A stretch of DNA of 64,000 nt from the NCBI GenBank assembly GCA_041913465.1, contig JAYSFJ010000015.1, forward strand, positions 46,548 to 110,547, given 5' to 3'. Below, piece after piece: positions 5,516 to 59,261 of the stretch. Within the stretch, counting starts at the first letter, position 1, and each line of letters begins with the position of its first letter. Both the position numbers and the translations under genes were made by a program. The stretch is from Mesorhizobium sp. GTDB taxonomy: Bacteria; Pseudomonadota; Alphaproteobacteria; Rhizobiales; Rhizobiaceae. The notes under the pieces are model-generated. The model saw nothing but the letters and a program-made list of their open reading frames with translations. It was not told the DNA's origin and searched no databases.

Positions 5516-5572
5516 ACATTTTTTCTTTGAAAATCAAAGCGCAAGGCAGGACGCCGACTGTCGGTCTATTTG

Positions 5573-5597
5573 GGAACCCGATCCGCAAACCGGCGTT
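5573..5597 (+). promoter_or_regulatory. EcfG-type promoter motif for the PRC-barrel gene
   Basis: GGAAC-ccgatccgcaaaccgg-CGTT, a perfect match, 87 nt upstream of the ATG at 5685. Confidence 0.7.
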
Positions 5598-5684
5598 AAC
5601 CGGACTGTGAGGCCGCGCCACCTTCACAGCGACGATCGAATGGCGCGGCCGTGCAAAGAAACCCTGCACGAAGGAGAGATTACC

Positions 5685-8336: not shown

Positions 8337-8403
8337 GCCAAGCTCCTTTTCAGCAGAGAGTTCCCGTGGTCTGCTAGCAGCCGCATCGAACGGAGGAAAG
8401 CAG

Positions 8404-8706
8404 ATGGTCGTCTGGCGTCGCACGGTTCTATCGGTCATGGCGGGGGCCGCGTTCGCGACGGCGGCGGACGCAGCCTTGCCGCCGCAGTATCAGCGGGCGA
8501 AAGAGCTGACGGCGGTCATCGACGCCGCTGCCGGCGTGCTCGGCGCCCGTCCGATCGAGAGCGTGTACCGGGTCGAGGACGACCTCTACCGGGTCGAAAC
8601 CGCGGGCTGCGTGCTCGATGTCCGGATCGAGGGCCTGCCCATGCCGCAGGGTATGGTCGGACCGCGCAGATTCAAGGCCGTTCCCGGCGAACCGGAGTGC
8701 CAATAG
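8404..8706 (+). CDS. Small secreted hypothetical protein
   Basis: Within ORF 8287..8706. ATG at 8404 with GGAGGAAAG upstream. Signal-like VLSVMAGAAFATAADA. High third-position GC. I do not recognise a family. Confidence 0.6.
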   Translation: MVVWRRTVLSVMAGAAFATAADAALPPQYQRAKELTAVIDAAAGVLGARPIESVYRVEDDLYRVETAGCVLDVRIEGLPMPQGMVGPRRFKAVPGEPECQ

Positions 8707-12004: not shown

Positions 12005-13999
12005 ATGACGTCACGTGAAAAGCATGACCGGATGGCGAATGCGATCCGCTTCCTGTCGATGGACGCGGTCGAGAAGGCCAATTCCGGCCATCCGGGCCTG
12101 CCGATGGGCGCGGCCGACATCGCCACGGTGCTGTTCACGAAATACCTGACCTTCGACCCGGCCAACCCGCACTGGCCCGACCGCGACCGCTTCGTGCTGT
12201 CGGCCGGCCATGGCTCGATGCTGCTCTATTCGCTGCTCTACCTGACCGGCTACGAGGACATCACGCTCGACGAGATCAAGAACTTCCGCCAGATCGGCTC
12301 CAAGACCGCCGGCCATCCGGAGTATGGCCACGCCGCCGGCATCGAGACGACCACCGGCCCGCTCGGACAGGGCCTCGGCAATTCCGTCGGCATGGCGCTC
12401 GCCGAACGGATCCTCAACGCCTCGTTCGGCGACGACCTCGTCGACCACTGGACCTATGTGCTCGCCGGCGACGGCTGCCTGATGGAGGGCATCAGCCAGG
12501 AGGCGATCGCCTTTGCCGGCCACCTCAAGCTCGGCAAGCTGGTCGTCTTCTGGGACAACAACAACATCTCGATCGACGGGGCAGTCTCGCTGTCGGATTC
12601 GACGAACCAGCTCGAGCGCTTCGCCGCGTCCGGCTGGCACACCATCTCCTGCGACGGCCACGACCCGGACGCGATCGCCCAGGCGATCGAAGCCGCGCGC
12701 GCCGACGATCGCCCGAGCCTTATCGCCTGCAAAACGACCATCGGCTTCGGCGCGCCGACCAAGGCGGGGACCAACAAGGCGCACGGCTCGCCGCTCGGCA
12801 AGGACGAGATCGCGGCAACGCGCAAGGCGCTGGGGTGGACCTCGGCGCCGTTCGAGGTGCCGTCCGACATCCTCGATGCCTGGCGTCTCGCCGGGCTGCG
12901 CTCGGTCAAGCGCCGCAAGGAATGGGAGGCCCGTCTCGCCAAGGCCGATACGGACATCCGCGGCGAGTTCGAGCGGCGCATGCGCGGCGATCTGCCGGGC
13001 GGCTTCGAGCCGGCGATGGCCGCCTACAAGCAGAAGCTCGCCGCCGACAAGCCAAAGGTCGCGACCCGCAAGTCGTCGGAAATGGCGCTGGAGATCGTCA
13101 ACGGCGCGGTGCCCGAGACGATCGGCGGCTCGGCCGACCTGACCGGCTCCAACAACACCAAGACCAGCCAGACCAGGCCGATCACGCCGACCGACTTCTC
13201 CGGCCGCTACGTCTATTACGGCATCCGCGAACACGGCATGGCCGCCGCCATGAACGGCATGGCGTTGCACGGCGGGCTGATCCCCTATTCGGGCACGTTC
13301 CTGGTCTTCTCCGACTATGCCCGTCCGGCCATGCGGCTCGCCTCGCTGATGCACCAGCGCGTCGTCTTCGTGATGACGCATGATTCCATCGGCCTCGGCG
13401 AAGACGGCCCGACCCACCAGCCGGTGGAGCATCTGGCCGCCCTGCGCGCCATCCCTAACCATCTCGTCTTCCGCCCGGCGGACGCGATGGAGAGCGCGGA
13501 GTGCTGGGAAATCGCGCTCAACTCGCGCACCGCGCCCTCGACGATCGCGCTGACCCGGCAGAACCTGCCGGCCGTCCGGACCGAATACAGCGAGGAGAAC
13601 CTCTGCGCCCGCGGCGCCTACGAGCTCGCGAGGGCGTCGGACGACGCCGCGGTGACGATCTTCGCCACCGGCTCGGAAGTCGAGATCGCGCTCGCCGCCC
13701 GCGCCAAGCTGCAGGCGCACGGCCATCCGACCCGCGTCGTCTCGGTGCCCTGCTTCGAGCTGTTCGAGCAGCAGAGCAAGGACTACCAGACCGCAATCAT
13801 CGGCAAGTCCAAGGTCAACATCGCCATCGAAGCCGGCATCCGCCAGGGGTGGGACCGCTTCATCGGCCGCGACGGCGTCTTCGTCGGCATGCACGGCTTC
13901 GGCGCCAGCGGCCCCTACGAGAAGCTCTACGAGCATTTTGGCATCACGGCGGACGCAGCCGCCGCGGCCGCGGAGAAGCTGCTCCATCCAACCAAGTAA
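12005..13999 (+). CDS. tkt: Transketolase
   Basis: Within ORF 11906..13999, ATG at 12005. [47 protein letters not shown] and [16 protein letters not shown] are diagnostic. Confidence 0.97.
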
Positions 14000-14050
14000 T
14001 CCGGCGGACGCCCGAGCCCGCCTTTCCTCCCGCACCATCGGAGATCGAAC

Positions 14051-15061
14051 ATGACCGTCAGGGTAGCAGTCAACGGATTTGGCCGGATCGGCCGCAACAT
14101 CGTCCGCGCCATCTATGAATCGGGCCGCAAGGACATCGACGTCGTCGCCGTCAACGACCTCGGCCCGGTCGAGACCAACGCGCACCTGCTGCGCTTCGAC
14201 AGCGTGCACGGCCGCTTCCCGGGCGAGGTCAAGGTCGACGGCGACACGATCTCGATCGGCACCGATTCCTTCAAGGTTCTCGCGGTCAAGGATCCGACGC
14301 AGCTGCCGTGGAAGGACCTCGGCATCGACATCGCGCTCGAATGCACCGGCATCTTCACCGCCCGCGACAAGGCGGCGATGCACCTCGCTGCCGGCGCCAA
14401 GCGCGTCATCGTCTCGGCGCCGTCCGATGGTGCCGACCTGACAGTCGTCTACGGCGTCAACCACGACAAGCTGACGAAGGACCACATGGTCATCTCGAAC
14501 GCGTCGTGCACCACCAACTGTCTGGCGCCGGTCGCCCAGGTGCTGAACGACACGATCGGCATCGAGAAGGGAATGATGACCACCATCCATTCCTACACCG
14601 GCGACCAGCCGACGCTGGACACGATGCACAAGGACCTCTACCGCGCCCGCGCCGCCGCGATGTCGCAGATCCCGACCTCCACCGGTGCAGCAAAGGCCGT
14701 CGGCCTCGTGCTGCCGGAGCTCAAGGGCAAGCTGGACGGTATCTCGGTGCGCGTGCCGACGCCGAACGTGTCGCTGGTCGACCTCAAGTTCATCGCCAGG
14801 AAGTCGACCTCGGTGCAGGAGGTCAACGAGGCGCTGATCGCCGCGTCGAAGGGCCGGCTCAAGGGCATCCTCGGCGTCACGACGCATCCGAACGTGTCGA
14901 TCGACTTCAACCACGACCCGCATTCCTCGACCGTCGCGCTCGACCAGACCAAGGTCATGGACGGCAACTTCGTCTCGGTCCTGTCCTGGTACGACAACGA
15001 ATGGGGCTTCTCGAACCGCATGGGCGACACCGCCGTCGCGCTCGGCAAGCTGATCGGCTGA
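14051..15061 (+). CDS. gap: Glyceraldehyde-3-phosphate dehydrogenase (type I)
   Basis: 336 aa. [16 protein letters not shown] and the active site [12 protein letters not shown]. Confidence 0.97.
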
Positions 15062-15084
15062 ACGGCCCGCATACCGCTTTCGAA

Positions 15085-15110
15085 TGCCCGGCTCCGGCCG
15101 GGCATTTTTC
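15085..15110 (+). terminator. Rho-independent terminator after gap
   Basis: tgcccgg-ctccgg-ccgggca stem-loop followed by ttttt. Confidence 0.65.
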
Positions 15111-15222
15111 GTTCGGGCCACCGGTTCGGGCAAGAAAATCGGGCAGGCCATGCATTTGTTTCCGCAGCGCCTTTTCTTCGCCGCACTATCTTATGAGGAG
15201 GAATAAAGAGGGTCGGGGACGA

Positions 15223-17073
15223 ATGTTCGAAGGGGTCTATCTCGTTACGCTTGCCGGAACCGCGATGGTTCTTGCCGCCGCGTTCTCGAGCCTGATCGCC
15301 TTCCGCTTCGGTGCCCCGCTGCTGCTTCTCTTCCTCGGTATCGGCCTGCTCGCGGGTCAGGACGGGCTCGGGATCCCGTTCGACAACGCGTCCGCCTCCT
15401 ATTTCATCGGCTCTATCGCGCTGGCGGTGATTCTGTTCGATTCCGGCTTCGGCACGGCCCTGTCGTCGCTGAGGCTCGCCGCACCGCCGGCGCTCTCCCT
15501 GGCGACGATCGGCGTGATCCTGACCGCCGGCTTCTTCGGTGCCTTCGCCTTCGCGATCACCGACCTCGACTGGCTGGAATCCTTCCTGCTCGGCTCTATC
15601 GTCGCCTCCACCGACGCCGCCGCGGTGTTCTTCCTGCTGCGAGCCGGGAACCTTCACATCCGCGAACGTGTGCGCAACACGCTGGAGATCGAATCTGGCT
15701 CCAACGACCCGATCGCGATCTTCCTGACCATTGCCTTCGTCGAGCTGATCAGCGCCGGCGCCGCGATCCAGCCGGGCGAACTGGCCGTCGGTGTCGTTCT
15801 CGGCTTCCTGCGCGAGATGGGCGTCGGTGTATTCGCCGGACTGCTCGGCGGTCGCCTCATCGTCATGTTCGTCAACCGTTTGAAGCTCGATCCCGGCCTG
15901 CTGCCGATCTTCGTCATAACGGTTGCGCTGGTCTTGTTCGGCATCACCGGCGCGGTGCATGGCTCGGGCTTCGTCGCCGTCTACACGGCAGGTCTCGTCG
16001 CCGGAAACTCGGGCATGCGCTCGACCGCGACGCTCAAGCGCTTCCAGGACGGCATCTCCTGGCTTGCCCAGATCATCATGTTCCTGGTGCTCGGCCTCTT
16101 CGCCACCCCGTCGCAGTTCACCTCGATCCTGCCCGTCGCCATCGCGCTGTCGCTGTTCCTCATCTTCATCGCGCGGCCGGTCGCGGTGTCGCTCTGCCTG
16201 CTGCCGTTCCGCTTTGCGCGGGCCGAGACGGCGTTCATCTCCTGGGTTGGCCTGCGCGGCGCGGTGTCGATCCTTCTGGCGCTCGCTCCGATCATCGGCG
16301 GGCTGGAGAACGGCAGGGAGCTGTTCAATATCGCCTTCATCATCGTGCTCGTGTCGCTCCTGGTTCAGGGCTGGACGATCGGTCCGGTCGCGCGACGGCT
16401 CGGGCTGATCATCCCGCCGCGCAGCGGTCCGCTCGACAAGGTCGAGCTGGAACTGCCAGGTTCGGCACACCATGAGCTGCTGGCCTATCGCGTGGCCGCC
16501 GGCAGCCCGGTCGCGCGCGGAGGACGCATCCCGCGCTGGGCGCGGCCTTCGCTGGTCATCCGCGAAGGCCGTTCGCTCAAGCCGCAGGACGCCGGACGCC
16601 TGCTGGCCGACGACCTCGTCTACATCTTCGTTTCGGACCGCTATCCGCGCCTGCTCGACCGGCTGTTCGCCACCAAGGTGTCGCTGGCGGCCGACGACGA
16701 GGAGTTCTTCGGATCGTTCACCGTCGACCCGGACCACCTCGCCAGCGAGATCAGCGCCGCCTACGGAGCAGAGCTGCGCGAGGGCGAGGCCGGTCTCACG
16801 ATTGCGCAGCTGATGCTCGCCAGGCTCGGCGGCCATGCCGAATATGCCGACCGCGTGCAACTCGGCCCGATCGAACTGATCGTGCGCGACACAGACGCCA
16901 AGGGCGAGATCGATTCCGTCGGCCTCGCGCTCGAACCGCAGGCACTGGCGCCATCGATGCCGCTGCTTCTCACCGCCGGAGAGATCCGCGACCGGCTCGC
17001 GCGCTTCGTGCGGCGAATGCGCGCGAAACCGCCGAAATCGCCGGACGGGCCGGCCGCGCCCGGCGCGGCTTGA
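15223..17073 (+). CDS. nhaP2: K+/H+ (cation:proton) antiporter, NhaP2/CvrA-like, with C-terminal TrkA-C-like domain
   Basis: Only the distal 616 codons of ORF 14308..17073 look coding. ATG at 15223 (MFEGVYLVTLAG), followed by about 12 hydrophobic helices (LLLLFLGIGLLAGQDGLG, ESGSNDP motif) and a soluble tail. The first 305 codons overlap gap out of frame. Confidence 0.88.
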   Translation: MFEGVYLVTLAGTAMVLAAAFSSLIAFRFGAPLLLLFLGIGLLAGQDGLGIPFDNASASYFIGSIALAVILFDSGFGTALSSLRLAAPPALSLATIGVILTAGFFGAFAFAITDLDWLESFLLGSIVASTDAAAVFFLLRAGNLHIRERVRNTLEIESGSNDPIAIFLTIAFVELISAGAAIQPGELAVGVVLGFLREMGVGVFAGLLGGRLIVMFVNRLKLDPGLLPIFVITVALVLFGITGAVHGSGFVAVYTAGLVAGNSGMRSTATLKRFQDGISWLAQIIMFLVLGLFATPSQFTSILPVAIALSLFLIFIARPVAVSLCLLPFRFARAETAFISWVGLRGAVSILLALAPIIGGLENGRELFNIAFIIVLVSLLVQGWTIGPVARRLGLIIPPRSGPLDKVELELPGSAHHELLAYRVAAGSPVARGGRIPRWARPSLVIREGRSLKPQDAGRLLADDLVYIFVSDRYPRLLDRLFATKVSLAADDEEFFGSFTVDPDHLASEISAAYGAELREGEAGLTIAQLMLARLGGHAEYADRVQLGPIELIVRDTDAKGEIDSVGLALEPQALAPSMPLLLTAGEIRDRLARFVRRMRAKPPKSPDGPAAPGAA

Positions 17074-31927: not shown

Positions 31928-32821
31928 CTACAGCCGCTCCCCATATCCCGCAAAAGCCGCGACGAGGCTGTCGAACACGGCCCTGACCCTGGGCACCTTG
32001 CTCAGGTTCTCGTGCGTCACGACCCAGGTGTCGAGGACGAGCGCCGTGACGTCCGGCAAGACCTGGCGCAGGCGCGGGTCGCGCCGACCTACCGGCACCT
32101 GAGCCACGGCGATGCCGATGCCGGCGCGGGCGGCGGCGATCTGCGCCGGATGGCTGTCGGTGCGCAGCACGAACCTGACTTGGGAAAAACCCGCTCCAAG
32201 CCGTTCCACGAGCGCGAGGTCGGCGAGCTTACGATCCGGGCCGATCATGTCGTGGCGTCCCAGATCCTCAAACGTCTGCGGTATGCCGTGCCGTTCGAGG
32301 TAGTCGACCGAGGCGAAGAAGCCCAGGGGGATCGACGCCACCTTCTTCGCCACCAGAGCCTCCTGTTTCGGGCTGACCGTTCGCACCGCCACGTCGACCT
32401 CCTGCGCCAGCAGGTCGGCGGGCGCGTTGCTCAGCGACAGTTCGATCCGGATAGCCGGGTAGGTGTCGCGCAGGACCCTCAGCATGGCCGGGATGACCTC
32501 TATGCCCATGAAATCCGGCACACTGATCCGCACCACGCCGGCGATCTCGCCCGGCGTTCCGGAGGCGTGGCGGATGAACAGGTCGGAGGCCATGGCCATG
32601 GTCCGGGCCGGCTCGCGCAGCGCTTCTGCGCTGTCGGTCGGTGTCAGGCCGTTCACCGAGCGAGTGAAAAGGACCGTGCCGAGCGCGGCCTCCAGCGCCT
32701 CAAGGCGGCTGCGGACAGTCGGATGGGAAACACCCAGCCGCCGCGCCGCGCCGGACAGGCTGCCTTCTTCAAGCACCGCCAGAAAGACGCGCTGGTCGTC
32801 CCACGAGATCGATCCGCTCAT
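31928..32821 (-). CDS. LysR family transcriptional regulator
   Basis: ORF 31928..32830. N-terminal HTH (WDDQRVFLAVLEEGSLSGAARRLGVSHPTVRSRLEALE) and a LysR substrate-binding domain. Confidence 0.9.
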   Translation of the reverse strand: MSGSISWDDQRVFLAVLEEGSLSGAARRLGVSHPTVRSRLEALEAALGTVLFTRSVNGLTPTDSAEALREPARTMAMASDLFIRHASGTPGEIAGVVRISVPDFMGIEVIPAMLRVLRDTYPAIRIELSLSNAPADLLAQEVDVAVRTVSPKQEALVAKKVASIPLGFFASVDYLERHGIPQTFEDLGRHDMIGPDRKLADLALVERLGAGFSQVRFVLRTDSHPAQIAAARAGIGIAVAQVPVGRRDPRLRQVLPDVTALVLDTWVVTHENLSKVPRVRAVFDSLVAAFAGYGERL

Positions 32822-32838
32822 AAGAAACATACTAGCTA

Positions 32839-32867
32839 CTGAAAGGAAACTTGCAATTTCTTTTCAG
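32839..32867. promoter_or_regulatory. Imperfect inverted repeat, candidate LysR-type operator
   Basis: CTGAAAGGAAA-N7-TTTCTTTTCAG (9/11 arm complementarity) in the 91-nt divergent intergenic region between the LysR gene and the SDR gene. Confidence 0.4.
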
Positions 32868-32912
32868 GTAACACCGGCGCATCCTTCCGGAACAAGTTCA
32901 AGGAGATCGGTC

Positions 32913-33902
32913 ATGACACAGCGGAAAACAGTTCTCGTCCTCGGCGCCTCCGGTGGAATCGGCGGCTCGATCGCCGCGGCGTTGCTGAGGCACGGCTGGC
33001 AGGTCCGCGGCATGGCACGCGACGTCATGTCGGTGAGTCATCGCGCCAATCCGCATATCGAGTGGGTTCAGGGCGATGCCCTGTCCCGCGACGACGTGGT
33101 GCGTGCGGCATCGGGCGTCGCGATGATCGTCCACGCAGTCAATCCGCCCGGCTACCGCAACTGGGGCAAGGTGGTTTTGCCGATGATCGACAACACGATC
33201 GCGGCGGCGCGTGCGGCGGACGGTGCGCGTATCGTCCTTCCGGGGACGATCTACAACTACGACCCGGCGCGCACGCCGGTCGTCGATGCCGGCTCGCCGC
33301 AGGAGCCGCGAAGCCGCAAGGGCGCGATCCGGGTTGCTCTCGAACAGCGGCTCGCGGACGCGGCGCCCGAGGTGCCGTCGCTGATCCTGCGCGCCGGCGA
33401 TTTCTTCGGCCCGGGCGTCAGGTCGAGCTGGTTCTCGCAGGCGATGGTGACGCCCGGCAAGCCCTTGACGCGCATCGTCAACCTGGCCAGGGGCGCGGGC
33501 CATTCCTGGGCCTACCTGCCGGACCTGGCGGAGGCCTTCTCCCGTCTCATGAATGCCGAGGACAGGCTGTCGCCGTTCGAGCGGGTTCAGTTCGAGGGCA
33601 TCTACGACGCGAGCGGCACGCTCATGACCGACGCGTTGCGCCGGATCGCGGGCCGCAAGGTTCCCATCTGGAGCTTTCCGTGGTGGCTCATGCGTCTTGC
33701 CGCGCCATTTGGTGGCTTCCCCCGCGAGGCGGCCGAAATCGCCCAATACTGGGGGCACCCGGTCAGGTTCGACAATCGCCGGCTGGTCGACCTGATCGGG
33801 CCTGAGCCGCGCACCGACCTCGACCTGGCGGTCAGGGCGAGCCTCGTCGACATGGGCTGCCTCGCTCCGGAGCCGAAACTGCTCCCCGCGGCGGCGGTGT
33901 AG
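32913..33902 (+). CDS. NAD-dependent epimerase/dehydratase family (extended SDR) protein
   Basis: Distal part of ORF 32463..33902. ATG at 32913 with AAGGAG upstream. VLVLGASGGIGGSIAAALLRHGWQVRG is a Rossmann motif. Confidence 0.8.
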   Translation: MTQRKTVLVLGASGGIGGSIAAALLRHGWQVRGMARDVMSVSHRANPHIEWVQGDALSRDDVVRAASGVAMIVHAVNPPGYRNWGKVVLPMIDNTIAAARAADGARIVLPGTIYNYDPARTPVVDAGSPQEPRSRKGAIRVALEQRLADAAPEVPSLILRAGDFFGPGVRSSWFSQAMVTPGKPLTRIVNLARGAGHSWAYLPDLAEAFSRLMNAEDRLSPFERVQFEGIYDASGTLMTDALRRIAGRKVPIWSFPWWLMRLAAPFGGFPREAAEIAQYWGHPVRFDNRRLVDLIGPEPRTDLDLAVRASLVDMGCLAPEPKLLPAAAV

Positions 33903-51395: not shown

Positions 51396-52406
51396 ATGAA
51401 ACAGACGGCGAAACTCCCGGCGGCGATGACGGCTATCGCGATTACCGAACCCGGCGGACCGATGGTGCTGAAACCCGAGAGGCGGCCGCTGCCGCTGCCC
51501 GGTCCGGGGGAAATCCTGATCAGGGTGAAGGCGGCGGGCGTGAACCGGCCCGACGTGCTGCAGCGGCAGGGCGCCTATCCGCCGCCGCCGGGCGCATCGG
51601 ACCTGCCCGGCCTGGAAGTGGCCGGCGAGGTCGCGGCGCTTGGAGAGGGCGTGAAGAGATGGCGTATCGGCGACGCGGTGACGGCGCTCACGCCGGGCGG
51701 CGGTTATGCCGAGTTCTGCCTCGTCGACGAGAGCAACGCCCTGCCGGTGCCGCACGGCTTCACCTTCACCGAGGCGGCCGCGGTGCCTGAAACCTTCTTC
51801 ACCGTCTGGCACAACGTCTTCCAGCGCGGCGGGCTGAAGGCGGGCGAGACCTTCCTTGTGCATGGCGGCACGTCGGGCATCGGCACCGCGGCGATCCAGC
51901 TTGCCAAGGCGTTCGGTGCGCGCGTGATCGCGACCGCCGGCTCGGCCGAAAAGTGCGAAGCCTGCACGAAACTCGGCGCCGATCGGGCCGTGAACTACCG
52001 GAGCGAGGATTTCGTCGCAGCCGTGAAGGAGGCAACCGGCGGCAAGGGCGCGGACGTGATCCTCGACATGGTGGGCGGCGACTATATCGGCCGCAACTAC
52101 GACGCCGCGGCAGTCGACGGACGGATCGTCCAGATCGCGTTCCTGCAGGGTGCGAAAGCGAACGCCGACTTCACCAAGCTGATGATCAAGCGTCTGACGC
52201 ATACCGGCTCGACGCTTCGCCCGCGCAGCGTCGAGTTCAAGGCAGGCATTGCCGCCGAGCTCGAGCGGCAAGTCTGGCCGCTGCTCGCGGAGCGCAGAAT
52301 CGCGCCCGTCATGGACATGATCTTCCCCCTGCGCGAGGCATGGCGGGCGCACGAGCGCATGCAGGAAGGCGAGCATATCGGCAAGATCGTCCTGGATGTC
52401 GGCTGA
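51396..52406 (+). CDS. qor: NAD(P)H:quinone oxidoreductase (zinc-type ADH superfamily, PIG3/Qor group)
   Basis: 336 aa. GEILIRVKAAGVNRPDVLQRQGAYPPPPGASDLPGLEVAGEV and VHGGTSGIGTAAIQLAK. Confidence 0.9.
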   Translation: MKQTAKLPAAMTAIAITEPGGPMVLKPERRPLPLPGPGEILIRVKAAGVNRPDVLQRQGAYPPPPGASDLPGLEVAGEVAALGEGVKRWRIGDAVTALTPGGGYAEFCLVDESNALPVPHGFTFTEAAAVPETFFTVWHNVFQRGGLKAGETFLVHGGTSGIGTAAIQLAKAFGARVIATAGSAEKCEACTKLGADRAVNYRSEDFVAAVKEATGGKGADVILDMVGGDYIGRNYDAAAVDGRIVQIAFLQGAKANADFTKLMIKRLTHTGSTLRPRSVEFKAGIAAELERQVWPLLAERRIAPVMDMIFPLREAWRAHERMQEGEHIGKIVLDVG

Positions 52407-52625
52407 GTGTGGGCCGCCCGGACTCTTTCGTCTCCCGCGTGGTCACGACAAATCCGACACTGTCTTCGATTTGTGCAGTGCAAAACGCTCGACGAGATGC
52501 CAAAGGAGATGCTTCCGGTTATTTTGGTCCCGATGCGATTCGATGAGCTTGACGTTTGAGCCCCGCCGAGTTTTCCGACCAGTCCAACCGTCGGGCGTCC
52601 GGTTCGCTCGGGTAGGCCCTCAACG

Positions 52626-52650
52626 GGAACGGCTAGCCGGCAAGAGCGTT
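52626..52650 (+). promoter_or_regulatory. EcfG-type promoter motif upstream of the glycosyltransferase/sulfotransferase operon
   Basis: GGAAC-ggctagccggcaagag-CGTT, a perfect N16 match, in the non-coding stretch 141 nt upstream of the ATG at 52792 and in the same orientation as the operon. A single chance hit per window is plausible, so confidence is moderate. Confidence 0.4.
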
Positions 52651-52791
52651 CGTCAGGATGGCATGGCAGGCGCCACACGAATGCAATGCCTTGGCGTTAT
52701 CGCGTAGCACCACACCCATCAATGTAACAAGCTTTGAAGGGCTCATGAAGGCAGCATATCCTTTCAACATCGCGCTGCGGGACAATCCCTC

Positions 52792-53280
52792 ATGCTGATC
52801 GCGACATCGAATTGCTTTGATGTCAGCGAGAGCGTTGATGGCTTGCTTGCGTGGGACGGGCCAGCGCTTCTTGTGTTTCTTCCCGGCTCCAACCCGGGCC
52901 GAAAGAGGCTCAGGGAACTCGAGCAGGATTTTCTCGTTCTCGATTGCCTCGAAAGGCCGGCGGCCGCCAGCTGCCTACTGCTGGATATACTCTCGTTGCT
53001 GAAGGTGCGCTTCGACAGCGAGAGCTGGCCGCTGCTGTACATGGATCGGCCGGGCGATGCGGATTTCGTCAAGGCCCAGTGCGAATTGGGACGGCGTCTT
53101 CCTGGCAGCCTCGAGGCGAGCTTCTCGGACGCAGGCGAACTGGCAACGCTACGGCTGGGGGAGATGATAGCGACGAGTCCGGTACTACGAGACGTCGTTT
53201 CGTTCATGTGCGAGAACCGCGTCGACGACCGCCGCATGGTCGGTCTGCTCAATCTATGCTTTCCCGGTGACCGCTCATGA
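52792..53280 (+). CDS. Hypothetical 162-aa protein, first gene of the operon
   Basis: ORF 52792..53280. Third-position GC about 75% by hand count. The stop overlaps the next ATG (ATGA at 53277-53280), which suggests translational coupling. No recognisable motif and no clear SD. Confidence 0.45.
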   Translation: MLIATSNCFDVSESVDGLLAWDGPALLVFLPGSNPGRKRLRELEQDFLVLDCLERPAAASCLLLDILSLLKVRFDSESWPLLYMDRPGDADFVKAQCELGRRLPGSLEASFSDAGELATLRLGEMIATSPVLRDVVSFMCENRVDDRRMVGLLNLCFPGDRS

Positions 53281-55823
53281 CGGATCTGCTGGCCATATGG
53301 CGCAGGTACGCGTCGATGGCGAACATTCTCGATCGACGTCCGGATTTCAGGTTCGATCCCGATTTCTACGGAGCGCAAAGACGGGAGCTGGACCAGGATC
53401 CCCAGGCTCTTCTCGCGCACTACGAGCAAAGCGGCAGAGAGGAGGGGTCTGCACCGACCCTCTACCGCAGCATCGCGCCGGAAAATCCGGACATGATCGC
53501 AGTCATCGGCCGCCTCGTCACCGATCCGAAACTGTCGAAAGCCATCGAGAGCGGAGATCCCGAGGCCTATCATCTGGCGTTCGAATTGATGCGTCTTGGG
53601 GCTCCCGTCGATGCAAGCATGTCGAATTTCTCGGCGCAGGCATATCAGGGCACCTACTACGACATCGGAAAGGCCGGCGTCGATCCGCTGATCCACTACC
53701 TCCTGTACGGCTCGAAGGAAGGGCGCCAGACGCTGGAACAGCTACGTGCGTCCCGCCATCAGGGGCGCGCCACTTTTTCCCCGGACAAACCGACCTGTCT
53801 GATCGCCACGCACGAGCTTTCGCGCACGGGGGCACCAGTCGTCGCGCTCGATCTCGTCCGCGAGGCCTCTCAGACGCATAATGTGATCGTCGCGTCGTTG
53901 AGGGACGGGCCGCTTCTGGCCGACTTTCTGGAGTATGCCTGCGAGGCTGTCGTCACGACGAAACTGCTTGGCGATTTCGCGCACTATAAAAGCGAGGCTT
54001 TTGCAAAGATCGAATTCGCCATCGTCAACTCCGTCGAGGCGTGGGCGTTCATCCCGTTTCTGGTCGCCCGGGAAATACCCTTCGCGTCCTATGTTCATGA
54101 GTATGCGAACTACCTCTTTCCGACATACAAATCGACGTTCACAGGGCTTTTCGCAGATCTGCTGGTCTTCTCTTCCGAGCACGTGCGGGACAGCTGGGAG
54201 GGACGGCTTCAGGATATCGAATTCGATACCGCTCGCGATTCCACAATCCTCAGACAGCGCAACTTCTCGGTTGGAGGGGTGGATACTGTGGCGCTTGAGG
54301 GCGCTCGGGCGCGCCTGTCGAGCATTCTCGGCCGCGATCTTTCGAAGGTTCGTCTCGTCTGCGGGGCAGGGCATCTGCAGTGGCGAAAGGGCACCGACAT
54401 CTTCGTCATGGCAGCCCAGATCTGCCGATCCCGCGACCGTGACACCGTTTTCGTGTGGATCGGCGACGGGCTGAACTTCGAGGACATCGGCTTCGGCGTA
54501 TGGATGAAATACCATATGCGTCAGGCGGGCTCGGATCGGGCCGGAGGAAACCTGTACTTCCTGCCGGCTGGCCCGGCCTATGGAGACCTGCTGGCGGCGT
54601 CCGATGCGATGTTCGTATCGTCGCGGCTCGATCCGCTCCCGAACGTGGTATTCGACGCACTGGATACCGGCTGCAGGATCGTCCAGTTCGAGGGTGCTTC
54701 GGGCTTCGGCGACAGTCTCTATTCGTCTACCGAGCATTTCATATCGGTTGAGTACGGCAATCCCCAGGCCGCGGCCGAGGCGATAGTGTCGCTGCCACGC
54801 AAAAGACCCTCTGCGGGGGTCGTGTCTCCGCCGCCCCCGCGTCTCTTCGCGAACATTCGAAAGAGCCTTGAGGCGAGGCTTGCGGCGCAGCGTTATTTCG
54901 TGCGCGGTGCGAGCCTGATCGACGTGCCAGTACTCTTCACCACCGACGCGGAGGATCAGCCGCTGCGCGCTCTCGAGAGGGAGAAGATACAACGCTATGG
55001 TCGGCGCTTCGTCTGGCGCGATCCGGCGGAAGCGGAAGAGGAAATCGCGAGTTCCGACAACTGGGTGCATAAGAAGCTACGGCTTGCGCCCTACCGCCAG
55101 GTACGGAATGTGCCCGAGACGGAATTCTCCATCCATGTCCACGCCTATTACACTGACGAACTGAATGACGACCTGAAGCATTACCGCGCCTACCGCTGTG
55201 CCAAACGGATAGTCGTCACGACGGATACGGATAGGAAGGCTGAAGAGATCCGCAAGTTCGCCTTGCTGGAGGGACTGTCGCCCGAAGTTCTGGTCGTGCC
55301 CAATCGGGGGCGGGATATCCTTCCATTCCTGGAGCTGTTCGACGAAGGAGGGGTCGCCGGCGAGGACGACATATGGTGTCATGTCCATCAGAAGAAGTCG
55401 CTGGGGCGGGCCGGTGAAGTCTGGCGGAGGTTCCTCATGCGAATTCTGCTGGGCGACGATAAGGAGTTGTCAACCGCGCTGCATCTGGCCAGCGGGGACG
55501 GAGTGGGCCTTGTCGCTCCGTTCGATCCCTACCTGGTGTCCTGGAACGCGTCGCGCGAGCTGCTGCCCAAGTTCGAGCCGCGCCTGTCGGGGCCACTTCC
55601 CAGCAATCCTCTCTTGTTTCCGGTCGGAAATATGTTCTGGATACGCAGTTCCGTGGTTCTGGCCATGCGGGATTTGTTCGGGCACAATTATCCGTGGCCG
55701 AATGAGCCGATCCCGGACGACGGAACCGAGTTCCATCTGATCGAGCGGCTCTGGCCCGCATTGGCCGCTCAGGTCGGGATGGATTCGGTATTTGTGCATA
55801 AGCTGGACCAGAAGAGGGTGTGA
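53277..55823 (+). CDS. Fusion glycosyltransferase: N-terminal repeat region, GT4-like (Glycos_transf_1) domain and RgpF (rhamnan synthesis protein F)-like domain
   Basis: 848 aa. Two FD..Y......DPL.HY...G..EGR-type repeats lie at aa 25-60 and 118-150. The GT-B core has VRLVCGAGHLQWRKGTDIF..VWIGDG..ASDAMFVSSRLDPLPNVVFDAL. The C-terminal part carries RgpF motifs (VVPNRGRDILPF, HVHQKKS, PVGNMFW, FHLIERLW). Confidence 0.85.
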   Translation: MTDLLAIWRRYASMANILDRRPDFRFDPDFYGAQRRELDQDPQALLAHYEQSGREEGSAPTLYRSIAPENPDMIAVIGRLVTDPKLSKAIESGDPEAYHLAFELMRLGAPVDASMSNFSAQAYQGTYYDIGKAGVDPLIHYLLYGSKEGRQTLEQLRASRHQGRATFSPDKPTCLIATHELSRTGAPVVALDLVREASQTHNVIVASLRDGPLLADFLEYACEAVVTTKLLGDFAHYKSEAFAKIEFAIVNSVEAWAFIPFLVAREIPFASYVHEYANYLFPTYKSTFTGLFADLLVFSSEHVRDSWEGRLQDIEFDTARDSTILRQRNFSVGGVDTVALEGARARLSSILGRDLSKVRLVCGAGHLQWRKGTDIFVMAAQICRSRDRDTVFVWIGDGLNFEDIGFGVWMKYHMRQAGSDRAGGNLYFLPAGPAYGDLLAASDAMFVSSRLDPLPNVVFDALDTGCRIVQFEGASGFGDSLYSSTEHFISVEYGNPQAAAEAIVSLPRKRPSAGVVSPPPPRLFANIRKSLEARLAAQRYFVRGASLIDVPVLFTTDAEDQPLRALEREKIQRYGRRFVWRDPAEAEEEIASSDNWVHKKLRLAPYRQVRNVPETEFSIHVHAYYTDELNDDLKHYRAYRCAKRIVVTTDTDRKAEEIRKFALLEGLSPEVLVVPNRGRDILPFLELFDEGGVAGEDDIWCHVHQKKSLGRAGEVWRRFLMRILLGDDKELSTALHLASGDGVGLVAPFDPYLVSWNASRELLPKFEPRLSGPLPSNPLLFPVGNMFWIRSSVVLAMRDLFGHNYPWPNEPIPDDGTEFHLIERLWPALAAQVGMDSVFVHKLDQKRV

Positions 55824-56831
55824 GTGCCGAAGTTCATATTTCATGTTGGAATGGGAAAGACCGGGTCGACGACAATTCAGGCTGCGTTGGCGGAAAATTC
55901 TTCGGTTTTGGCCGCAAAGGGCTATTTATATTTAGGGCAATGGCTAGGTATAGTTCGACCAGAGTTTGATGAATTTGCAGGGTTTCAATTATTTCTTGAG
56001 CAATCCCCGCGGGAGTTTGATATTTCTTCGTTCCTTTTCCTTAATGCGGCTGAAGATGTTAATATTGGCAGGAAACTCGATAAGTTCATAGTATCAAATG
56101 AGCAGTATTTAGAAAACGTGGCGAAGACAGAGCCATTCTTCAGGGGTATTTCTCGTCGCAGGGAATTAGAGATAATTATATATGTAAGACCGCCTGCGAC
56201 TTGGTTGCCGTCTGCATATATGCAGTGGGGGGTTATACATAAAACAAATCTCGGCCGGTTAGAGTCGTTCTCTGTGCAAGCCCGTGAATTGATGAAGCAG
56301 TATGGGTATATTCGTCAATGGCGCGAGTTGTTTGGCTCTGCTGTCACTGTCCGACCCTTTGATGATAAGTTGGATGTAGTCAAAGACATATCTGATCATC
56401 TTCAAGTGGAATTGGTATCTCACTTGGGGAGGCATCAAGGTCGCCCTGGTGTTTCTGAAGCGCTATTGCGCGGAATGTGCAACAATGTACATCCGGGTAT
56501 TGCATTTCCCGATTTTTACGACGAGATCCTCGCGCGAGGAATCCCGGCCGGCACGCCCCGAAGCTTATCCGCTAAATTCTCATATATGTTTGATGTCGGA
56601 GATATACCGGAAATAATTGCGGAGAATCGTGAAACTATTTCATATATTGAGCGGGAATTTGGACTTGATATGTCCAGCTATGATGCACCGCTCCAAGGGA
56701 ATTTCAATCTAAACGAGCTAACCAACGATATTCTAGGGACGATGATGGATTTAGTATTCAGTCAAGCTCATCAAATAAAAGGTCTCTCTTCTAGAATCGA
56801 AGAGCTTGAACGCCGGAATAAGCCTCGATGA
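55824..56831 (+). CDS. Putative sulfotransferase (P-loop-like 5'-PSB motif), low-GC gene
   Basis: 335 aa. GTG start directly after the upstream TGA, with AAGAGGG 5 nt upstream. The N-terminal FIFHVGMGKTGSTTIQ resembles the PAPS 5'-phosphosulfate-binding loop of bacterial sulfotransferase-like families. About 45% GC (435/960 hand count over 55861-56820). Confidence 0.7.
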   Translation: MPKFIFHVGMGKTGSTTIQAALAENSSVLAAKGYLYLGQWLGIVRPEFDEFAGFQLFLEQSPREFDISSFLFLNAAEDVNIGRKLDKFIVSNEQYLENVAKTEPFFRGISRRRELEIIIYVRPPATWLPSAYMQWGVIHKTNLGRLESFSVQARELMKQYGYIRQWRELFGSAVTVRPFDDKLDVVKDISDHLQVELVSHLGRHQGRPGVSEALLRGMCNNVHPGIAFPDFYDEILARGIPAGTPRSLSAKFSYMFDVGDIPEIIAENRETISYIEREFGLDMSSYDAPLQGNFNLNELTNDILGTMMDLVFSQAHQIKGLSSRIEELERRNKPR

Positions 56832-58474
56832 AATCTGACATGATGGCATCACAAGAGAATTCTCTGAAGGTGGGCGCGTCTGCGCGCACTGCGCTCGTCG
56901 TCCTCGGCATGCATCGATCCGGCACGTCGGCGATGGCCGGCATTCTGGCGCAGATGGGGTGCGATCTGCCGAAGGAGCTAATGCCGCCGACGGATGCCAA
57001 TCCGAAAGGGTATTTCGAATCGTACAAGGCTTACCACCTGAACGACGATCTGCTCGCCTCTGCAGGGTCGTCCTGGGACGATTCAACCGTCTTCAATCCG
57101 GAGTGGTACGGCTCCCCACGATACCCCGAGTACCGCCAGCGGGCGGCCAAGGTCGTCGAGGAGGAGTTCGGCGATTCGGGGTTCTTCGTCCTGAAGGACC
57201 CGAGGATATGCCGTCTTCTTCCGTTCTGGCAGCGGGTGCTGTCCGATCTCGATGTCGGGCCTCGCTATGTCTGCATTCACCGGCATCCCCGGGAGGTGGC
57301 CGCCTCGCTGACCCGGCGCGAGGGCTGGTCGGAGACGGTGGGCCTTCTGCTGTGGCTGCGCCACGTTCTCGAAGCGGAGGCGGGCAGCCGGGGTAAACCC
57401 CGTTCATTCGTGTCCTACGATATGCTGTTGGCAGATTGGCGCGGCACGGTGGCCCGCATCGGCGATGAGCTCGGACTGAACTGGCCGCGTCATCCCGACA
57501 ACGCGGCGTCCGATGTCGAGGAATTCCTTTCCGTCGAGCTTCGACACTTTCGGGCGGCCGGCGAACAGATGCCAAAGCATTCGCTGGCCTTCGGTTGGGT
57601 CGCGCGAGCCTACGAGGTTCTGGAGCGCTGGGCTGCCGATGGCGAACAGACGGCCGATCATGCCGAGCTCGATGCCCTTAGGGCAGCGTTTGACGAAGCC
57701 TCGCCGCTCTTGGGTCTGGTCGCGGTGGAAAATCGGCGCCTCGAAGCAAAGCTGGCGAAGGCCGAGACGACCCTGACCGCCGCGCGGGCCGAGGCGATCG
57801 GGCACGCGGCCAATCATGCGACCGAACAGAGAAGCCGCGGCGCCTTGGAGGGGCTCGTCGCGAAGCTTGAGGCCGAACTGGAGGCGACTGCGCAAAGCAG
57901 GCGGGAGTTGGAGAACGACCTCGTCCAGACGCGCAGTGCGTTCCTACAACGCGGCCACGAACTGGACGAATTGCGGCAGCAGACGGAGCGCGACACGGCC
58001 AGAATCGCGCGGTTGTCAGGCGAATTGGAAACCTTGCGCGACGAACTTGGACACTTCGAGCAGCGCCACGAGCGCGACGCGAGGCATCTCGCACAGATGG
58101 CGCGCCAGCTTGCCCCGCTGATCAGGCAGGAGTTCGGTGCCGTAATCGACGGCAAGCGCGCGGAAGAAGCCGTCGCTCGCCTCGAGGGCGAGAAAGCCGA
58201 ACTGGCTCACGCGAAGATGCTGCTCGAAAAGCGCTACCTGACGATAAGCGAGGAGGTTTCGCGCGGCCGTGAATCGGCTGCGTCCGAGATCGCTGCCCTC
58301 GTGGCAGAACGTGACCGACTCAAGCCGCTGGAGAATGAAGTGGTAGCTCAAGCCAAGGCGCTTGAGCAGAAGGTGGCGGAACTGGAAGCGTTCCGGAGTG
58401 CGATCAAGACCAGCACCTCATGGCGCCTGACGGCGCCACTTCGCGGTCTTTCGCGGCTGGTGAAAGGGCGGTAG
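56828..58474 (+). CDS. Sulfotransferase family protein fused to a long C-terminal coiled coil
   Basis: 548 aa. The ATG overlaps the upstream stop (ATGA). VVLGMHRSGTSAMAG (5'-PSB loop), FVLKDPRICRLLPFW and CIHRHPREVAASL (3'-PB-like). From about aa 265, heptad-rich E/A/R/L sequence runs to the end, with a terminal STSWRLTAPLRGLSRL. Confidence 0.8.
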   Translation: MKSDMMASQENSLKVGASARTALVVLGMHRSGTSAMAGILAQMGCDLPKELMPPTDANPKGYFESYKAYHLNDDLLASAGSSWDDSTVFNPEWYGSPRYPEYRQRAAKVVEEEFGDSGFFVLKDPRICRLLPFWQRVLSDLDVGPRYVCIHRHPREVAASLTRREGWSETVGLLLWLRHVLEAEAGSRGKPRSFVSYDMLLADWRGTVARIGDELGLNWPRHPDNAASDVEEFLSVELRHFRAAGEQMPKHSLAFGWVARAYEVLERWAADGEQTADHAELDALRAAFDEASPLLGLVAVENRRLEAKLAKAETTLTAARAEAIGHAANHATEQRSRGALEGLVAKLEAELEATAQSRRELENDLVQTRSAFLQRGHELDELRQQTERDTARIARLSGELETLRDELGHFEQRHERDARHLAQMARQLAPLIRQEFGAVIDGKRAEEAVARLEGEKAELAHAKMLLEKRYLTISEEVSRGRESAASEIAALVAERDRLKPLENEVVAQAKALEQKVAELEAFRSAIKTSTSWRLTAPLRGLSRLVKGR

Positions 58475-58906
58475 TCAGTTCCGGGCGGACGGCCCGCCGG
58501 AAACGACGGCTGTCCTCGTCGCTATGACGAAGATGAAGTCGTAGCCGCTACCGACGTTCAGGTCTTCCGGCCGCGCGCTCGACTGGAGTGTCGGCACGCT
58601 GATGTTGGCAGTGACGAACTCGCATGCCTGGGGATGGATATCTGATGCGTAAAGCGACGCGCCGGGCAACAGATCGCGCAGATGTCGCGTCACCCGGCCG
58701 TAATCGGAAGCGAACTCAAGGACCCTGACCTCCGTCTCTTTCCGGAAACGCCGGATAGTCGCCGCCGTCTGCGCGGCGTCGGACTTACCACCTTCAAGAT
58801 AAGCCTTCCTCGCGCGTTCTTCGCCAAGTCGTCCCTTCAGAAACCCAAAGAGATGATCTTCGGGGTGTATTTCGGTCAGGAACGGCGGCGCGGTCTCGTG
58901 GTCCAT
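58475..58906 (-). pseudogene. Truncated class I SAM-dependent methyltransferase-like remnant
   Basis: ORF 58475..58999. VRVLEFASDYGRVTRHL (degenerate motif I), LYASDIHPQA (post-I) and YDFIFVIA (motif II), then the frame ends after 14 more residues. Its stop abuts the convergent gene stop with 0 nt between them. About 143 aa is too short for a complete Rossmann methyltransferase. Confidence 0.4.
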
Positions 58907-59261
58907 CCCGATTCTCTCCTGTTGGGAAGCCGCCCTTTGCCGAGATGTTCGGATGGCGATTCGATATGATCTATGAAGACTTTGCCGCATTTGGTCCATG
59001 CCTGAATCCCATCGGCGAAATTCTTTGGCTCACTATATTTCCGATCTTGTTCGTTCGATGCCCCTGCCGCGATGCTGTCGACATCTTCTCCAGCCTCCGT
59101 CCACTGGATCTCGAAACGACGGCTCATCCGCTGAGGAACATGCCCGGCCCTTTCCCTTGCCTCGCTTCCTCATTCGGTTTATATCCATCGCGATTTCCCA
59201 TTCTTCGGTGGTCTGACCACCGCCCGCGCAAGGGACGCGGGCGAACGAGAGGATATTCTTC

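Follow-up and report, generated by a model that had tools for sequence, protein, structure and literature searches.

An acquired glycosyltransferase-sulfotransferase cassette of Mesorhizobium that may extend and sulfate a surface polysaccharide made elsewhere

Using a combination of computational methods (profile searches, fold comparisons, codon statistics and alignments with related loci), we showed that a 6.9-kb block of Mesorhizobium sp., located between qor and trcR (the DUF1013 gene) in the 64,000-nucleotide stretch of DNA analysed here (the window), is horizontally acquired DNA inserted at a variable junction. It carries a conserved cassette with glycosyltransferase and sulfotransferase domains, the genes of which are kept under purifying selection and the third of which is exchanged (Table 1). 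We propose, with confidence and doubt in about equal measure, that the block is an acquired accessory module acting in trans to extend and sulfate (possibly sulfate-cap) a cell-surface polysaccharide made elsewhere. Both Mesorhizobium and Sinorhizobium are known to have surface polysaccharides that carry sulfate (PMC6192434; PMC11625862).

Table 1. Features of the block (window positions)
Feature	Positions	Strand	Basis or remark
Putative promoter region/island-specific leader, upstream of gene 1	52407-52791	+	89% identical in L005, ~69% in L002
Gene 1, 162 aa, small orphan family	52792-53280	+	ATGA-coupled to glycosyltransferase gene
Gene 2, 848 aa, two-module glycosyltransferase	53277-55823	+	Pfam, fold, conserved residues
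Gene 2 helical domain, aa 1-170	53277-53786	+	Two FDxxxY...DPLxHYxxxGxxEGR repeats
Gene 2 GT4 module, GT-B fold, aa 171-520	53787-54836	+	Pfam and PDB fold matches
Gene 2 RgpF-like domain, aa 613-848	55113-55820	+	Pfam RgpF
Gene 3 ("slot 3"), 335 aa, divergent PAPS-type sulfotransferase-like	55824-56831	+	Sub-threshold Pfam, PAPS-binding motifs, fold
Gene 4, 548 aa, sulfotransferase with coiled-coil tail	56828-58474	+	Sulfotransfer_3, PSB loop, tail periodicity
Gene 4 head, aa 1-290	56828-57697	+	
Gene 4 coiled coil, about aa 300-530 (~230 aa)	57725-58417	+	
Gene 4 C-terminal motif SWRLTAPLR	58418-58444	+	
Truncated class I SAM-methyltransferase pseudogene, remnant of fifth, convergent cassette gene	58475-58999	-	Alignment to L096
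Island-specific spacer	59000-59176		Precedes right border (~59177-59192)

The GC content of the block (52407-59261) is 58.5%, versus 65.5% in the remainder of the window, close to the hand counts from which a sequence-only reading had proposed a lower-GC region, and it is the lowest value of any 6.9-kb window (mean 64.9%, sd 2.2). This composition is heterogeneous: genes 1, 2 and 4 have a GC of 60-64% and a GC3 of 71-75%, and gene 3 is a distinct insert of much lower GC (44.6%; GC3 43%), while the flanking core genes qor and trcR have a GC3 of 86-91%. Codon usage deviates likewise, the CAI-like index of genes 1 to 4 (0.42, 0.50, 0.22 and 0.52) being in each case below that of every one of the 28 host genes used as the reference (0.69 ± 0.07; minimum 0.545). 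In most relatives the junction is cassette-less, with qor and trcR 150-800 bp apart, a comparison that supports an acquired block. Its left border is the qor stop (52406), as proposed earlier, and homology to the cassette-less relatives ends there. Its right border lies at ~59177-59192 and not at 59261, because the final ~85 bp ahead of trcR are a conserved core leader, in which blastn similarity to these relatives resumes. The earlier reading recognised no tRNA at the borders, and the search found none in the whole window, no direct or inverted repeats of note in the island flanks and no Rfam match; the leader upstream of gene 1 also lacks a consensus sigma-70 site.

The four plus-strand genes (52792-58474) are intact and translationally coupled by an ATGA (53277-53280), a TGA followed by GTG (55821-55826) and a second ATGA (56828-56831), just as the sequence-only reading described them; their products have 162, 848, 335 and 548 aa. 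Their dN/dS values range from 0.10 to 0.23 in both the window-L005 and the window-L002 comparisons (gene 1, 0.13-0.21; gene 2, 0.10-0.17; gene 4, 0.15-0.23). The earlier gene list lacked the minus-strand pseudogene, which shows 60% identity to residues 21-149 only of the intact 262-aa methyltransferase of L096 (Pfam Methyltransf_23/12/25), the alignment breaking off past the DFIFVI motif. L005 has a similarly truncated copy and L002 lacks the gene. In L005, the closest relative, the glycosyltransferase gene is broken by a 1248-bp deletion. From this deletion and the pseudogene it follows that part of the clade can do without the module and is losing it, and both count against our preferred explanation. 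They would suit an orphan cassette, cut from a larger glycan cluster, now without its epimerase, methyltransferase and transporter partners, and decaying in a genome that offers it no functional pathway, as would the poorly adapted codon usage and the absence here of the NAD-dependent epimerase/dehydratase gene that adjoins the cassette in most other hosts. We nevertheless regard such decay as improbable, in view of the intact coupled genes, the low dN/dS in both comparisons, the persistence of the island since the common ancestor of the window, L005, L002 and L096 (its synonymous divergence from L005 is close to that of the flanks) and the active exchange of gene 3, which implies selection on its product.

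The product of gene 2 is, as had been read from the sequence, a fusion of a GT4 glycosyltransferase with an RgpF-like domain. Pfam assigns RgpF to aa 613-833 (1.6e-23; 83.6 bits versus a cut-off of 25), Glyco_trans_1_4 to aa 363-506 (1e-7) and, weakly, Glyco_trans_4_5 to aa 174-314. The best PDB folds for its AF2 model (pLDDT 89.3) are GT4 enzymes, namely HepE (4xso, 5.9e-12), followed by MshA, BshA, WaaG and WbnH. More than 120 full-length homologues were found; across 44 of them the invariant residues include R370/K371, D452-x7-D460, H620, H622, D650, N676, G678-R679-D680, H702, H704 and K706, and T648 and T649 are nearly invariant. The predicted catalytic residues of both modules, like those of the two sulfotransferases, are among the invariant positions. 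The RgpF match covers model positions 268-501 of 503 (the C-terminal half only) and the search for a solved relative of this domain found none, so that its catalytic role is our assumption, a point that counts against our explanation. We propose that the 848-aa enzyme would extend, on the cytoplasmic side of the inner membrane, a lipid-linked glycan started and exported by another locus, using a retaining GT4 module plus the RgpF-like module and, as donors, probably 6-deoxyhexose (rhamnose-type) sugars.

The 162-aa protein may be a non-catalytic partner of this enzyme. It has no match in Pfam, NCBIfam or PDB, and its few conserved residues include none that looks catalytic. A set of 1.84 billion proteins contains just 50 cluster representatives of its family, almost all of them standalone (~130-210 aa, with no added domain), and a homologue precedes the ~850-aa glycosyltransferase in L002-L005, L087-L090, L096, L113 and others.

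The 335-aa protein, earlier noted for its PAPS-loop motif, has nothing above threshold in Pfam, and its identification as a divergent sulfotransferase is supported by sub-threshold profile matches, PAPS-binding motifs and low-TM fold matches. Within its family, 24 of 28 members match Sulfotransfer_4 (best 5.8e-6) and eight match Sulfotransfer_3; G11-K12-T13-G14, S91-N92-E93 and the pair R122 and S130 (R-x7-S) are invariant. The best fold match of its AF2 model (pLDDT 81) is the cytosolic sulfotransferase 7r0o (1e-4), with TPST2 and NMP kinases next and a TM of only 0.3-0.38, and hhalign of the gene 3 and gene 4 families was not significant. That this call depends on sub-threshold matches and low TM counts against our explanation. 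A 335-like gene lies directly 3' of the ~850-aa glycosyltransferase gene in about 30 loci, and this position is a recombinational swap slot, cleanly replaced between near-identical islands. The 335-aa enzyme would use PAPS to sulfate the sugar installed by the glycosyltransferase.

The 548-aa protein is a sulfotransferase with a coiled-coil tail, in agreement with the sequence-only reading. Its head matches Sulfotransfer_3 (aa 24-220, 1.4e-9), with a PSB loop (GMHRSGTS) and invariant R152 and S160, and its tail (62-70% A/E/L/R/K/Q) gives SMC-type matches and has a periodicity of 3.5 residues at 3-7 times background. Homologues of 481-877 aa (926 aa in L086) differ only in the length of the tail (~190 to 590 residues), the head and the C-terminal motif being fixed; the latter, STSW[RK]xTxPLR, is conserved in more than 10 of them. 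As judged from sequence, this is a WbdD-like layout (catalytic head, variable-length coiled coil, conserved C-terminal motif), and an extended coiled coil is the characteristic marker of glycan chain-terminating enzymes (PMC11231755). We propose that the C-terminal motif would dock the enzyme to a complex or to the membrane, and that the ~230-residue coiled coil would carry the second sulfotransferase head at its end, so that it acts a fixed distance away from where the chain is polymerised, as chain-length-determining capping enzymes of the WbdD type do. The same enzymes could instead sulfate along the chain, at each repeat or side branch, in the way that sulfated capsules are modified; the coiled coil would then serve only for oligomerisation or as a scaffold. 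Known bacterial sulfated polysaccharides carry sulfate within repeats (PMC11641403), and linkage to the glycosyltransferase is much stricter for the 335-like gene than for the coiled-coil enzyme, as would be expected of a per-residue modifier. Moreover, the ABC ATPases linked in related loci are all short (194-270 aa) and devoid of the carbohydrate-binding module that recognises the cap in the prototype systems, which also counts against capping. We consider along-chain sulfation somewhat unlikely, since a tail of varying length between a fixed head and C-terminal motif is the described molecular-ruler pattern (PMC11231755).

The cassette is not peculiar to this genome and recurs across Alphaproteobacteria. 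It occurs at the same site in a Mesorhizobium subclade (with identical gene order in M. australicum), and with the same order on a 114-kb plasmid of Cereibacter sphaeroides 2.4.1 and inside GLF/GlfT2 glycan clusters of Phaeobacter and Gemmobacter. It is also present in many metagenomic Rhodobacterales, and in Rhodobacterales it can form part of ABC-transporter glycan clusters for rhamnose or galactofuranose. That it is not a described system held for function: none is given in the searched annotations or literature, and the literature search turned up no biochemical or genetic work on any of the members. Among related loci, rmlABCD is linked in at least 10, Wzm/Wzt in five and Poly_export in about five; L086 combines all of these with the glycosyltransferase and the 926-aa protein in a single cluster. 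"Self-contained" was thus an overstatement, the epimerase and these often-linked genes all being missing here. Among the 40 window ORFs of at least 136 aa outside the block, Pfam scans gave none for polysaccharide export or PAPS synthesis and none clearly for nucleotide sugars; the sole exception is an NAD-epimerase-family match in an uncertain ORF call (32463-33902). The earlier deduction that the glycan is made elsewhere is therefore reasonable, although this lack of acceptor, donor, exporter and PAPS genes in the window also counts against our explanation. "Decorating" that glycan fits, and may understate the case, as a two-module glycosyltransferase with a coiled-coil enzyme would equally fit chain extension and capping. 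What the module builds and sulfates might also be something other than a polysaccharide, namely a glycolipid, periplasmic glucan, glycoprotein or small molecule, given that no export or initiation genes lie near it in Mesorhizobium or on the Cereibacter plasmid and that Sulfotransfer_3 includes NodH, an enzyme whose substrate is a lipo-oligosaccharide (PMC11625862). This is the most improbable of the readings, for the informative contexts are polysaccharide clusters (rml, GLF/GlfT2, Wzm/Wzt, Poly_export).

Returning to the extension and sulfation of a polysaccharide, one of the closest described parallels is WbdD/WbdA (E. coli O9a and K. pneumoniae O3), which similarly combines a modifying head, an extended coiled coil and a conserved C-terminal region (PMC11231755, PMC3482155) with a separate multi-module glycosyltransferase; relatives of the cassette also reside in ABC-transporter-dependent glycan clusters. 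Related coiled-coil terminators are WbbB (O12), ORF7 (O4) and ORF6 (O7). The 548-aa enzyme has no sequence homology to WbdD, and its head is a PAPS-type sulfotransferase instead of a kinase/methyltransferase or Kdo transferase. Unlike the WbdD systems, the cassette adds a second free-standing sulfotransferase and the 162-aa orphan protein, is unlinked here to any transporter, and has relatives whose ABC ATPases lack the carbohydrate-binding module. Gene 2 resembles RgpF (PF05045, streptococcal rhamnan pathways) by its above-threshold match and by the rmlABCD often linked in related loci, but has only the C-terminal half, joined to a GT4 module and to a helical domain with repeats; rhamnosyl transfer is putative. 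The rhizobial polysaccharide and Nod-factor sulfotransferases NodH, LpsS and KpsS offer a parallel in that they use PAPS to sulfate glycoconjugates of the cell surface in Rhizobiales (PMC11625862, PMC6192434), and the 548-aa head, with its RxG-type PSB loop, falls in the Pfam family of NodH (PMC11625862); their descriptions in the literature consulted, the basis on which LpsS and KpsS were compared, mention neither a coiled-coil tail nor a fused operon with a GT4-RgpF enzyme. Finally, WbbY (wbbYZ, K. pneumoniae O1) belongs to other glycosyltransferase families, with no sulfotransferases or coiled-coil partner described, and would offer a functional analogy only: from an accessory locus, this unlinked two-module polymerase can extend an existing O-polysaccharide made elsewhere (PMC11231755).

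The island between qor and trcR (the DUF1013 gene) is best read as an accessory module for extending and sulfating a glycan. The sequence-only reading had described a four-gene, low-GC block at this place, and the ORFs (see the table), their junctions (ATGA for genes 1/2, TGA then GTG for genes 2/3 and ATGA for genes 3/4) and the base composition bear it out: the block 52407-59261 has 58.5% GC versus 65.5% for the remaining window, the lowest value among all 6.9-kb windows. The GC content is not uniform within the block, being 44.6% in gene 3 (GC3 43%) and 60-64% in genes 1, 2 and 4 (GC3 71-75%), while GC3 is 86-91% in the flanking qor and trcR. For codon usage, 28 host genes served to train a CAI-like index, on which they themselves scored 0.69 ± 0.07 (minimum 0.545); the values for genes 1 to 4 were 0.42, 0.50, 0.22 and 0.52, respectively.

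Coordinates of the cassette genes and of other features of the window
Feature	Position	Strand	Length	Assignment
Gene 1	52792-53280	+	162 aa	
Gene 2	53277-55823	+	848 aa	Glycosyltransferase
Gene 3	55824-56831	+	335 aa	Probable divergent sulfotransferase
Gene 4	56828-58474	+	548 aa	Coiled-coil sulfotransferase
Island ORF	58475-58999	-		Class I SAM methyltransferase gene, 5' portion
Sulfatase gene	6783-8438	-	551 aa	PF00884 + SGSH_C
PhyR gene	293-1135	-		General stress response locus (293-2049)
ECF sigma factor gene	1384-2049	+		General stress response locus (293-2049)

Elsewhere the window encodes core housekeeping functions (PhyR/EcfG, transketolase, GAPDH, PGK, pyruvate carboxylase, SecDF, pyruvate kinase and PurEK), the general stress response locus occupying the left end. 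The rest of the 64-kb window yielded no gene for polysaccharide export or PAPS and none clearly for nucleotide sugars; with no initiation, donor-synthesis, PAPS or export genes within 64 kb, the cassette would therefore have to act in trans. The sulfatase gene lies about 45 kb from the cassette, and its product may be unrelated to it or have a role in the turnover of sulfated glycans. For a regulatory RNA in the 385-bp leader there was no Rfam match at E ≤ 1, and the promoter and terminator scans of the leader and of the region 3' of gene 4 did not exceed the shuffled expectation.

A genome scan with TrcR gave 80 loci, from Mesorhizobium and from further members of the Hyphomicrobiales. The qor and trcR genes adjoin in about 35 of the 80 loci, and in most Mesorhizobium, Brucella and Pseudochrobactrum the gap between them is 150-800 bp. 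It widens to about 2.5 kb in some genera, where an unrelated minus-strand gene of 740-780 aa lies in it, and a few loci carry other cargo. Insertions thus recur at the qor-trcR junction. The minus-strand gene, which has a signal-peptide-like start, occurs in Phyllobacterium, Nitratireductor and others, and the unrelated cargo of other loci spans 3-6 kb (loci concerned: L015, L039, L046, L050, L052, L062 and L083; also L027, L030 and L019). Nucleotide similarity between the window and its cassette-free relatives stops at the qor stop codon (52404-52409) and restarts at 59177-59192, and the acquired segment is therefore approximately 52407-59176. Its composition and the empty sites in relatives point to acquisition of the island. 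An integrative element or a prophage remnant was rejected as a recognisable mobile element, there being no tRNA in the window, no meaningful flanking repeats at the island borders and no recombinase domain in the five island ORFs.

The cassette stands at the qor-trcR junction in five places: the window; L001, a Logan contig identical to it; L005, a Mesorhizobium MAG with a TrcR 98% identical to that of the window; L002, which is M. australicum; and L096, a metagenomic contig near M. australicum. Between the window and L005, the synonymous divergence is 0.21-0.35 for the cassette versus 0.33-0.40 for the flanks, and the island is therefore older than the split between the two. The dN/dS ratios of 0.10-0.23, obtained for every cassette gene in both comparisons (window with L005 and window with L002), indicate that the cassette genes are under purifying selection. 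Two features lead to the view that the island is kept in some lineages and is eroding in others. First, in the closest relative, L005, the glycosyltransferase gene (4899-6184) lacks 1248 bp, corresponding to 54135-55382 of the window, which leaves ORFs of 303 and 136 aa next to intact genes 1 and 4. Second, the methyltransferase gene is intact in L096 (262 aa), truncated in both the window and L005, and absent in L002; a fifth cassette gene survives in the window as a pseudogene. This pseudogene and the exchange slot of gene 3, described below, go beyond the sequence-only reading.

The domain calls of that reading were right. In gene 2, the Pfam RgpF family (PF05045) matches residues 613-833 (83.6 bits versus a cut-off of 25; E = 1.6e-23), a match that covers only model positions 268-501 of 503 and is thus not a full-length domain. 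Glyco_trans_1_4 (PF13692) matches residues 363-506 (1e-7; 32.7 bits versus 27), PF00534 falls just below its cut-off (24.3 versus 26.4 bits), and Glyco_trans_4_5 gives a weak match at residues 174-314. The AlphaFold model of the protein, built on 44 homologues (pLDDT 89), finds its best PDB matches among GT4 enzymes (HepE, MshA, BshA, WaaG and WbnH), with E-values of 1e-12 to 1e-8 and a target TM of up to 0.69 for the first four; this Foldseek search of the whole chain is dominated by the GT-B module. Gene 2 thus has the fold and profile of GT4, with two Rossmann-like domains in a GT-B arrangement. Neither the 848-aa protein nor the RgpF-domain profile gave a meaningful match in PDB sequence searches, which revealed no solved relative of the RgpF-like domain. 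In GT4 enzymes, the nucleotide sugar is bound by an R/K pair and an E-x7-E motif. At the putatively equivalent positions, R370/K371 are invariant and the acidic pair is D452-x7-D460, not E-x7-E, invariant in the 44 homologues. In these same homologues, H620, H622, T648-T649-D650, N676, G678-R679-D680, H702, H704 and K706 are invariant or nearly so.

The N-terminal 170 residues of gene 2 (window 53277-53786) form a helical region with two FDxxxY...DPLxHYxxxGxxEGR repeats. This motif, which no Pfam family covers, recurs at the C-terminus of a 926-aa protein of locus L086 (5253-8033, minus strand), where a sulfotransferase head is followed by a coiled coil (about 550 aa); the two proteins may share the motif as a module for docking or for membrane contact.

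Gene 4 is built of a head (aa 1-290), a coiled coil (approximately aa 300-530) and a C-terminal motif. The head has the features of Sulfotransfer_3 (PF13469): the profile matches at residues 24-220 (1.4e-9; 39 bits versus a cut-off of 27), the GMHRSGTS loop provides the 5'-PSB, and the invariant R152 and S160, in R-x7-S spacing, provide the 3'-PB arginine and serine. NodH belongs to this same Pfam family (PMC11625862). Residues 300-530 consist for 62-70% of A/E/L/R/K/Q, with little proline or glycine, and show a 3.5-residue hydrophobic periodicity at 3-7 times background together with SMC-type matches. An anti-phage defence system was rejected, the PADLOC match (JetC at 0.0017) being only a coiled-coil artefact. 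The homologues of gene 4 are 481-877 aa long in total and differ in the length of the tail; they all keep the head, and their C-terminal STSW[RK]xTxP[LI]R motif is invariant. The 926-aa protein of L086 bears the FDxxxY-type motif in place of STSWRxTAPLR, and a Phaeobacter glycan cluster (L004) encodes two paralogous coiled-coil sulfotransferases of 567 and 580 aa (3723-5426 and 13741-15483), both ending in SW[RK]VTAPLR. A PDB sequence search with the 548-aa protein gave nothing meaningful.

Gene 3 has no Pfam match above threshold, scoring 13.8 bits against Sulfotransfer_4 (cut-off 22.8). Among 28 relatives, however, 24 match Sulfotransfer_4 (best 5.8e-6) and eight match Sulfotransfer_3. The family keeps G11-K12-T13-G14, whose K12 is part of a KxG[ST]T loop; R122-x7-S130 and S91-N92-E93 are invariant as well. 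R-x7-S is the 3'-phosphate-binding spacing of sulfotransferases and is common to gene 3 and the gene 4 family. The structural model of gene 3 (pLDDT 81) is closest to cytosolic sulfotransferase and TPST2, but at low TM values (0.3-0.38) that NMP kinases reach similarly, and a PDB search with the family profile found nothing meaningful. From the profile matches of the relatives, the conserved residues and the model, we assign gene 3 with moderate confidence as a divergent sulfotransferase. For paralogy of genes 3 and 4, hhalign gave no evidence, its probability for the two families being a non-significant 2%; the R-x7-S region did align.

The position of gene 3 is an exchange slot. First, the island DNA of the window and L005 is about 87-92% identical except at 55826-56879; nucleotide similarity is absent from this stretch, in which L005 encodes a 352-aa relative only 29% identical to gene 3. 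Second, L002 and L096 are 92-98% identical on either side of the slot, whereas the slots themselves (12553-13616 and 12553-13655, respectively) share no DNA similarity and 23% amino-acid identity, which is a precise gene replacement. The slot is AT-rich in Mesorhizobium and Phaeobacter (44.6-51% GC), but not in Cereibacter (69%). Such exchange between near-identical islands is a clear case of modular surface-antigen diversification and is relevant to phage and host recognition among rhizobia and roseobacters.

Gene 1 belongs to an orphan family: out of 1.84 billion proteins, only 50 cluster representatives are members, and almost all are standalone (about 130-210 aa) with no extra domain. It matched nothing in Pfam or in a PDB search with the family profile, and its conservation reveals no catalytic-looking invariant residues.

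The sequence-only reading took the architecture to be undescribed. Our literature search found no study of the cassette and no functional description, yet the cassette is widespread and conserved, not peculiar to this genome. Full-length homologues of the 848-aa architecture number more than 120, most of them from Rhodobacterales, and the four-gene order also occurs in Cereibacter sphaeroides, Phaeobacter gallaeciensis and Gemmobacter lutimaris. In C. sphaeroides 2.4.1, the cassette lies on a 114-kb plasmid (NZ_CP030274.1; L167, 10300-19438; genes DQL45_RS21195-RS21215) and, with its epimerase gene, directly upstream of kaiC-kaiB and a HWE histidine kinase gene; its annotation reads hypothetical, rhamnan synthesis F, hypothetical and sulfotransferase, nothing further. 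As this strain is a tractable model, the function is directly testable. In P. gallaeciensis and G. lutimaris, the cassette sits within clusters encoding UDP-galactopyranose mutase and GlfT2-like enzymes. Our locus survey (41 metagenomic and seven genome-derived loci, L002-L005 and L085-L087) showed a constant core in about 30 loci, namely the approximately 850-aa glycosyltransferase directly followed by the gene 3-like gene, with the coiled-coil sulfotransferase next in line where the relatives are closer. Very often the upstream neighbour is an NAD-dependent epimerase/dehydratase gene, which all Mesorhizobium copies lack. The linked genes include rmlABCD (at least 10 loci), Wzm/Wzt (five) and Poly_export (about five), and L086 joins all of these with the glycosyltransferase and the 926-aa protein. 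The linked ABC ATPases are all 194-270 aa long and have no carbohydrate-binding module. From its enzymes, their conservation and these contexts, the cassette is assigned to the cytoplasmic-face assembly of ABC-transporter-type surface glycans, often containing 6-deoxyhexose.

Bacterial polysaccharide sulfation is poorly understood, few sulfotransferases having been characterised, and the chain-capping chemistries so far are methyl, phosphomethyl, Kdo and pyruvate. The cassette is compact, conserved and under selection, and it is of most interest as a possible source of a new chemistry of chain capping. If gene 4 is a terminator, sulfate would join this short list and would show how chain length can be fixed even where no transporter reads the cap. 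A census of terminator chemistries (Mann et al. 2019, Glycobiology 29:822) reportedly predicted new ones; should sulfotransferases be among them, the novelty would be less. The head and coiled-coil layout has been described as the distinguishing feature of chain terminators equipped with molecular rulers (PMC11231755; PMC3482155). Like WbdD-type terminators, gene 4 has a head, an extended coiled coil and a conserved C-terminal region, and by this analogy sulfate-capping of the glycan is therefore a reasonable hypothesis. Unlike in WbdD-type systems, the cap-binding module of the partner ATPase is missing in the related loci, and the window has no transporter. Sulfate-capping is weakened because the linked transporters lack a cap-reading module, and the same absence speaks for a strong rival, sulfation within the chain; if the module does no more than decorate a glycan, it is an ordinary accessory glycan island. 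The most extended form of the capping proposal, in which sulfate would be a new chain-terminating cap in ABC-transporter-type assembly, installed by a sulfotransferase on a coiled-coil ruler that so sets polysaccharide length, and the exchangeable gene 3 would vary the fine structure of the cap or the repeat, making a compact, portable serotype-switching module for glycans of unlinked loci, we regard as rather unlikely. For S. meliloti and M. loti, sulfation of LPS and of capsular polysaccharides is on record (PMC6192434; PMC11625862), and, like WbbY, the unlinked polymerase of Klebsiella O1 (PMC11231755), the window cassette would act on its glycan from an unlinked locus.
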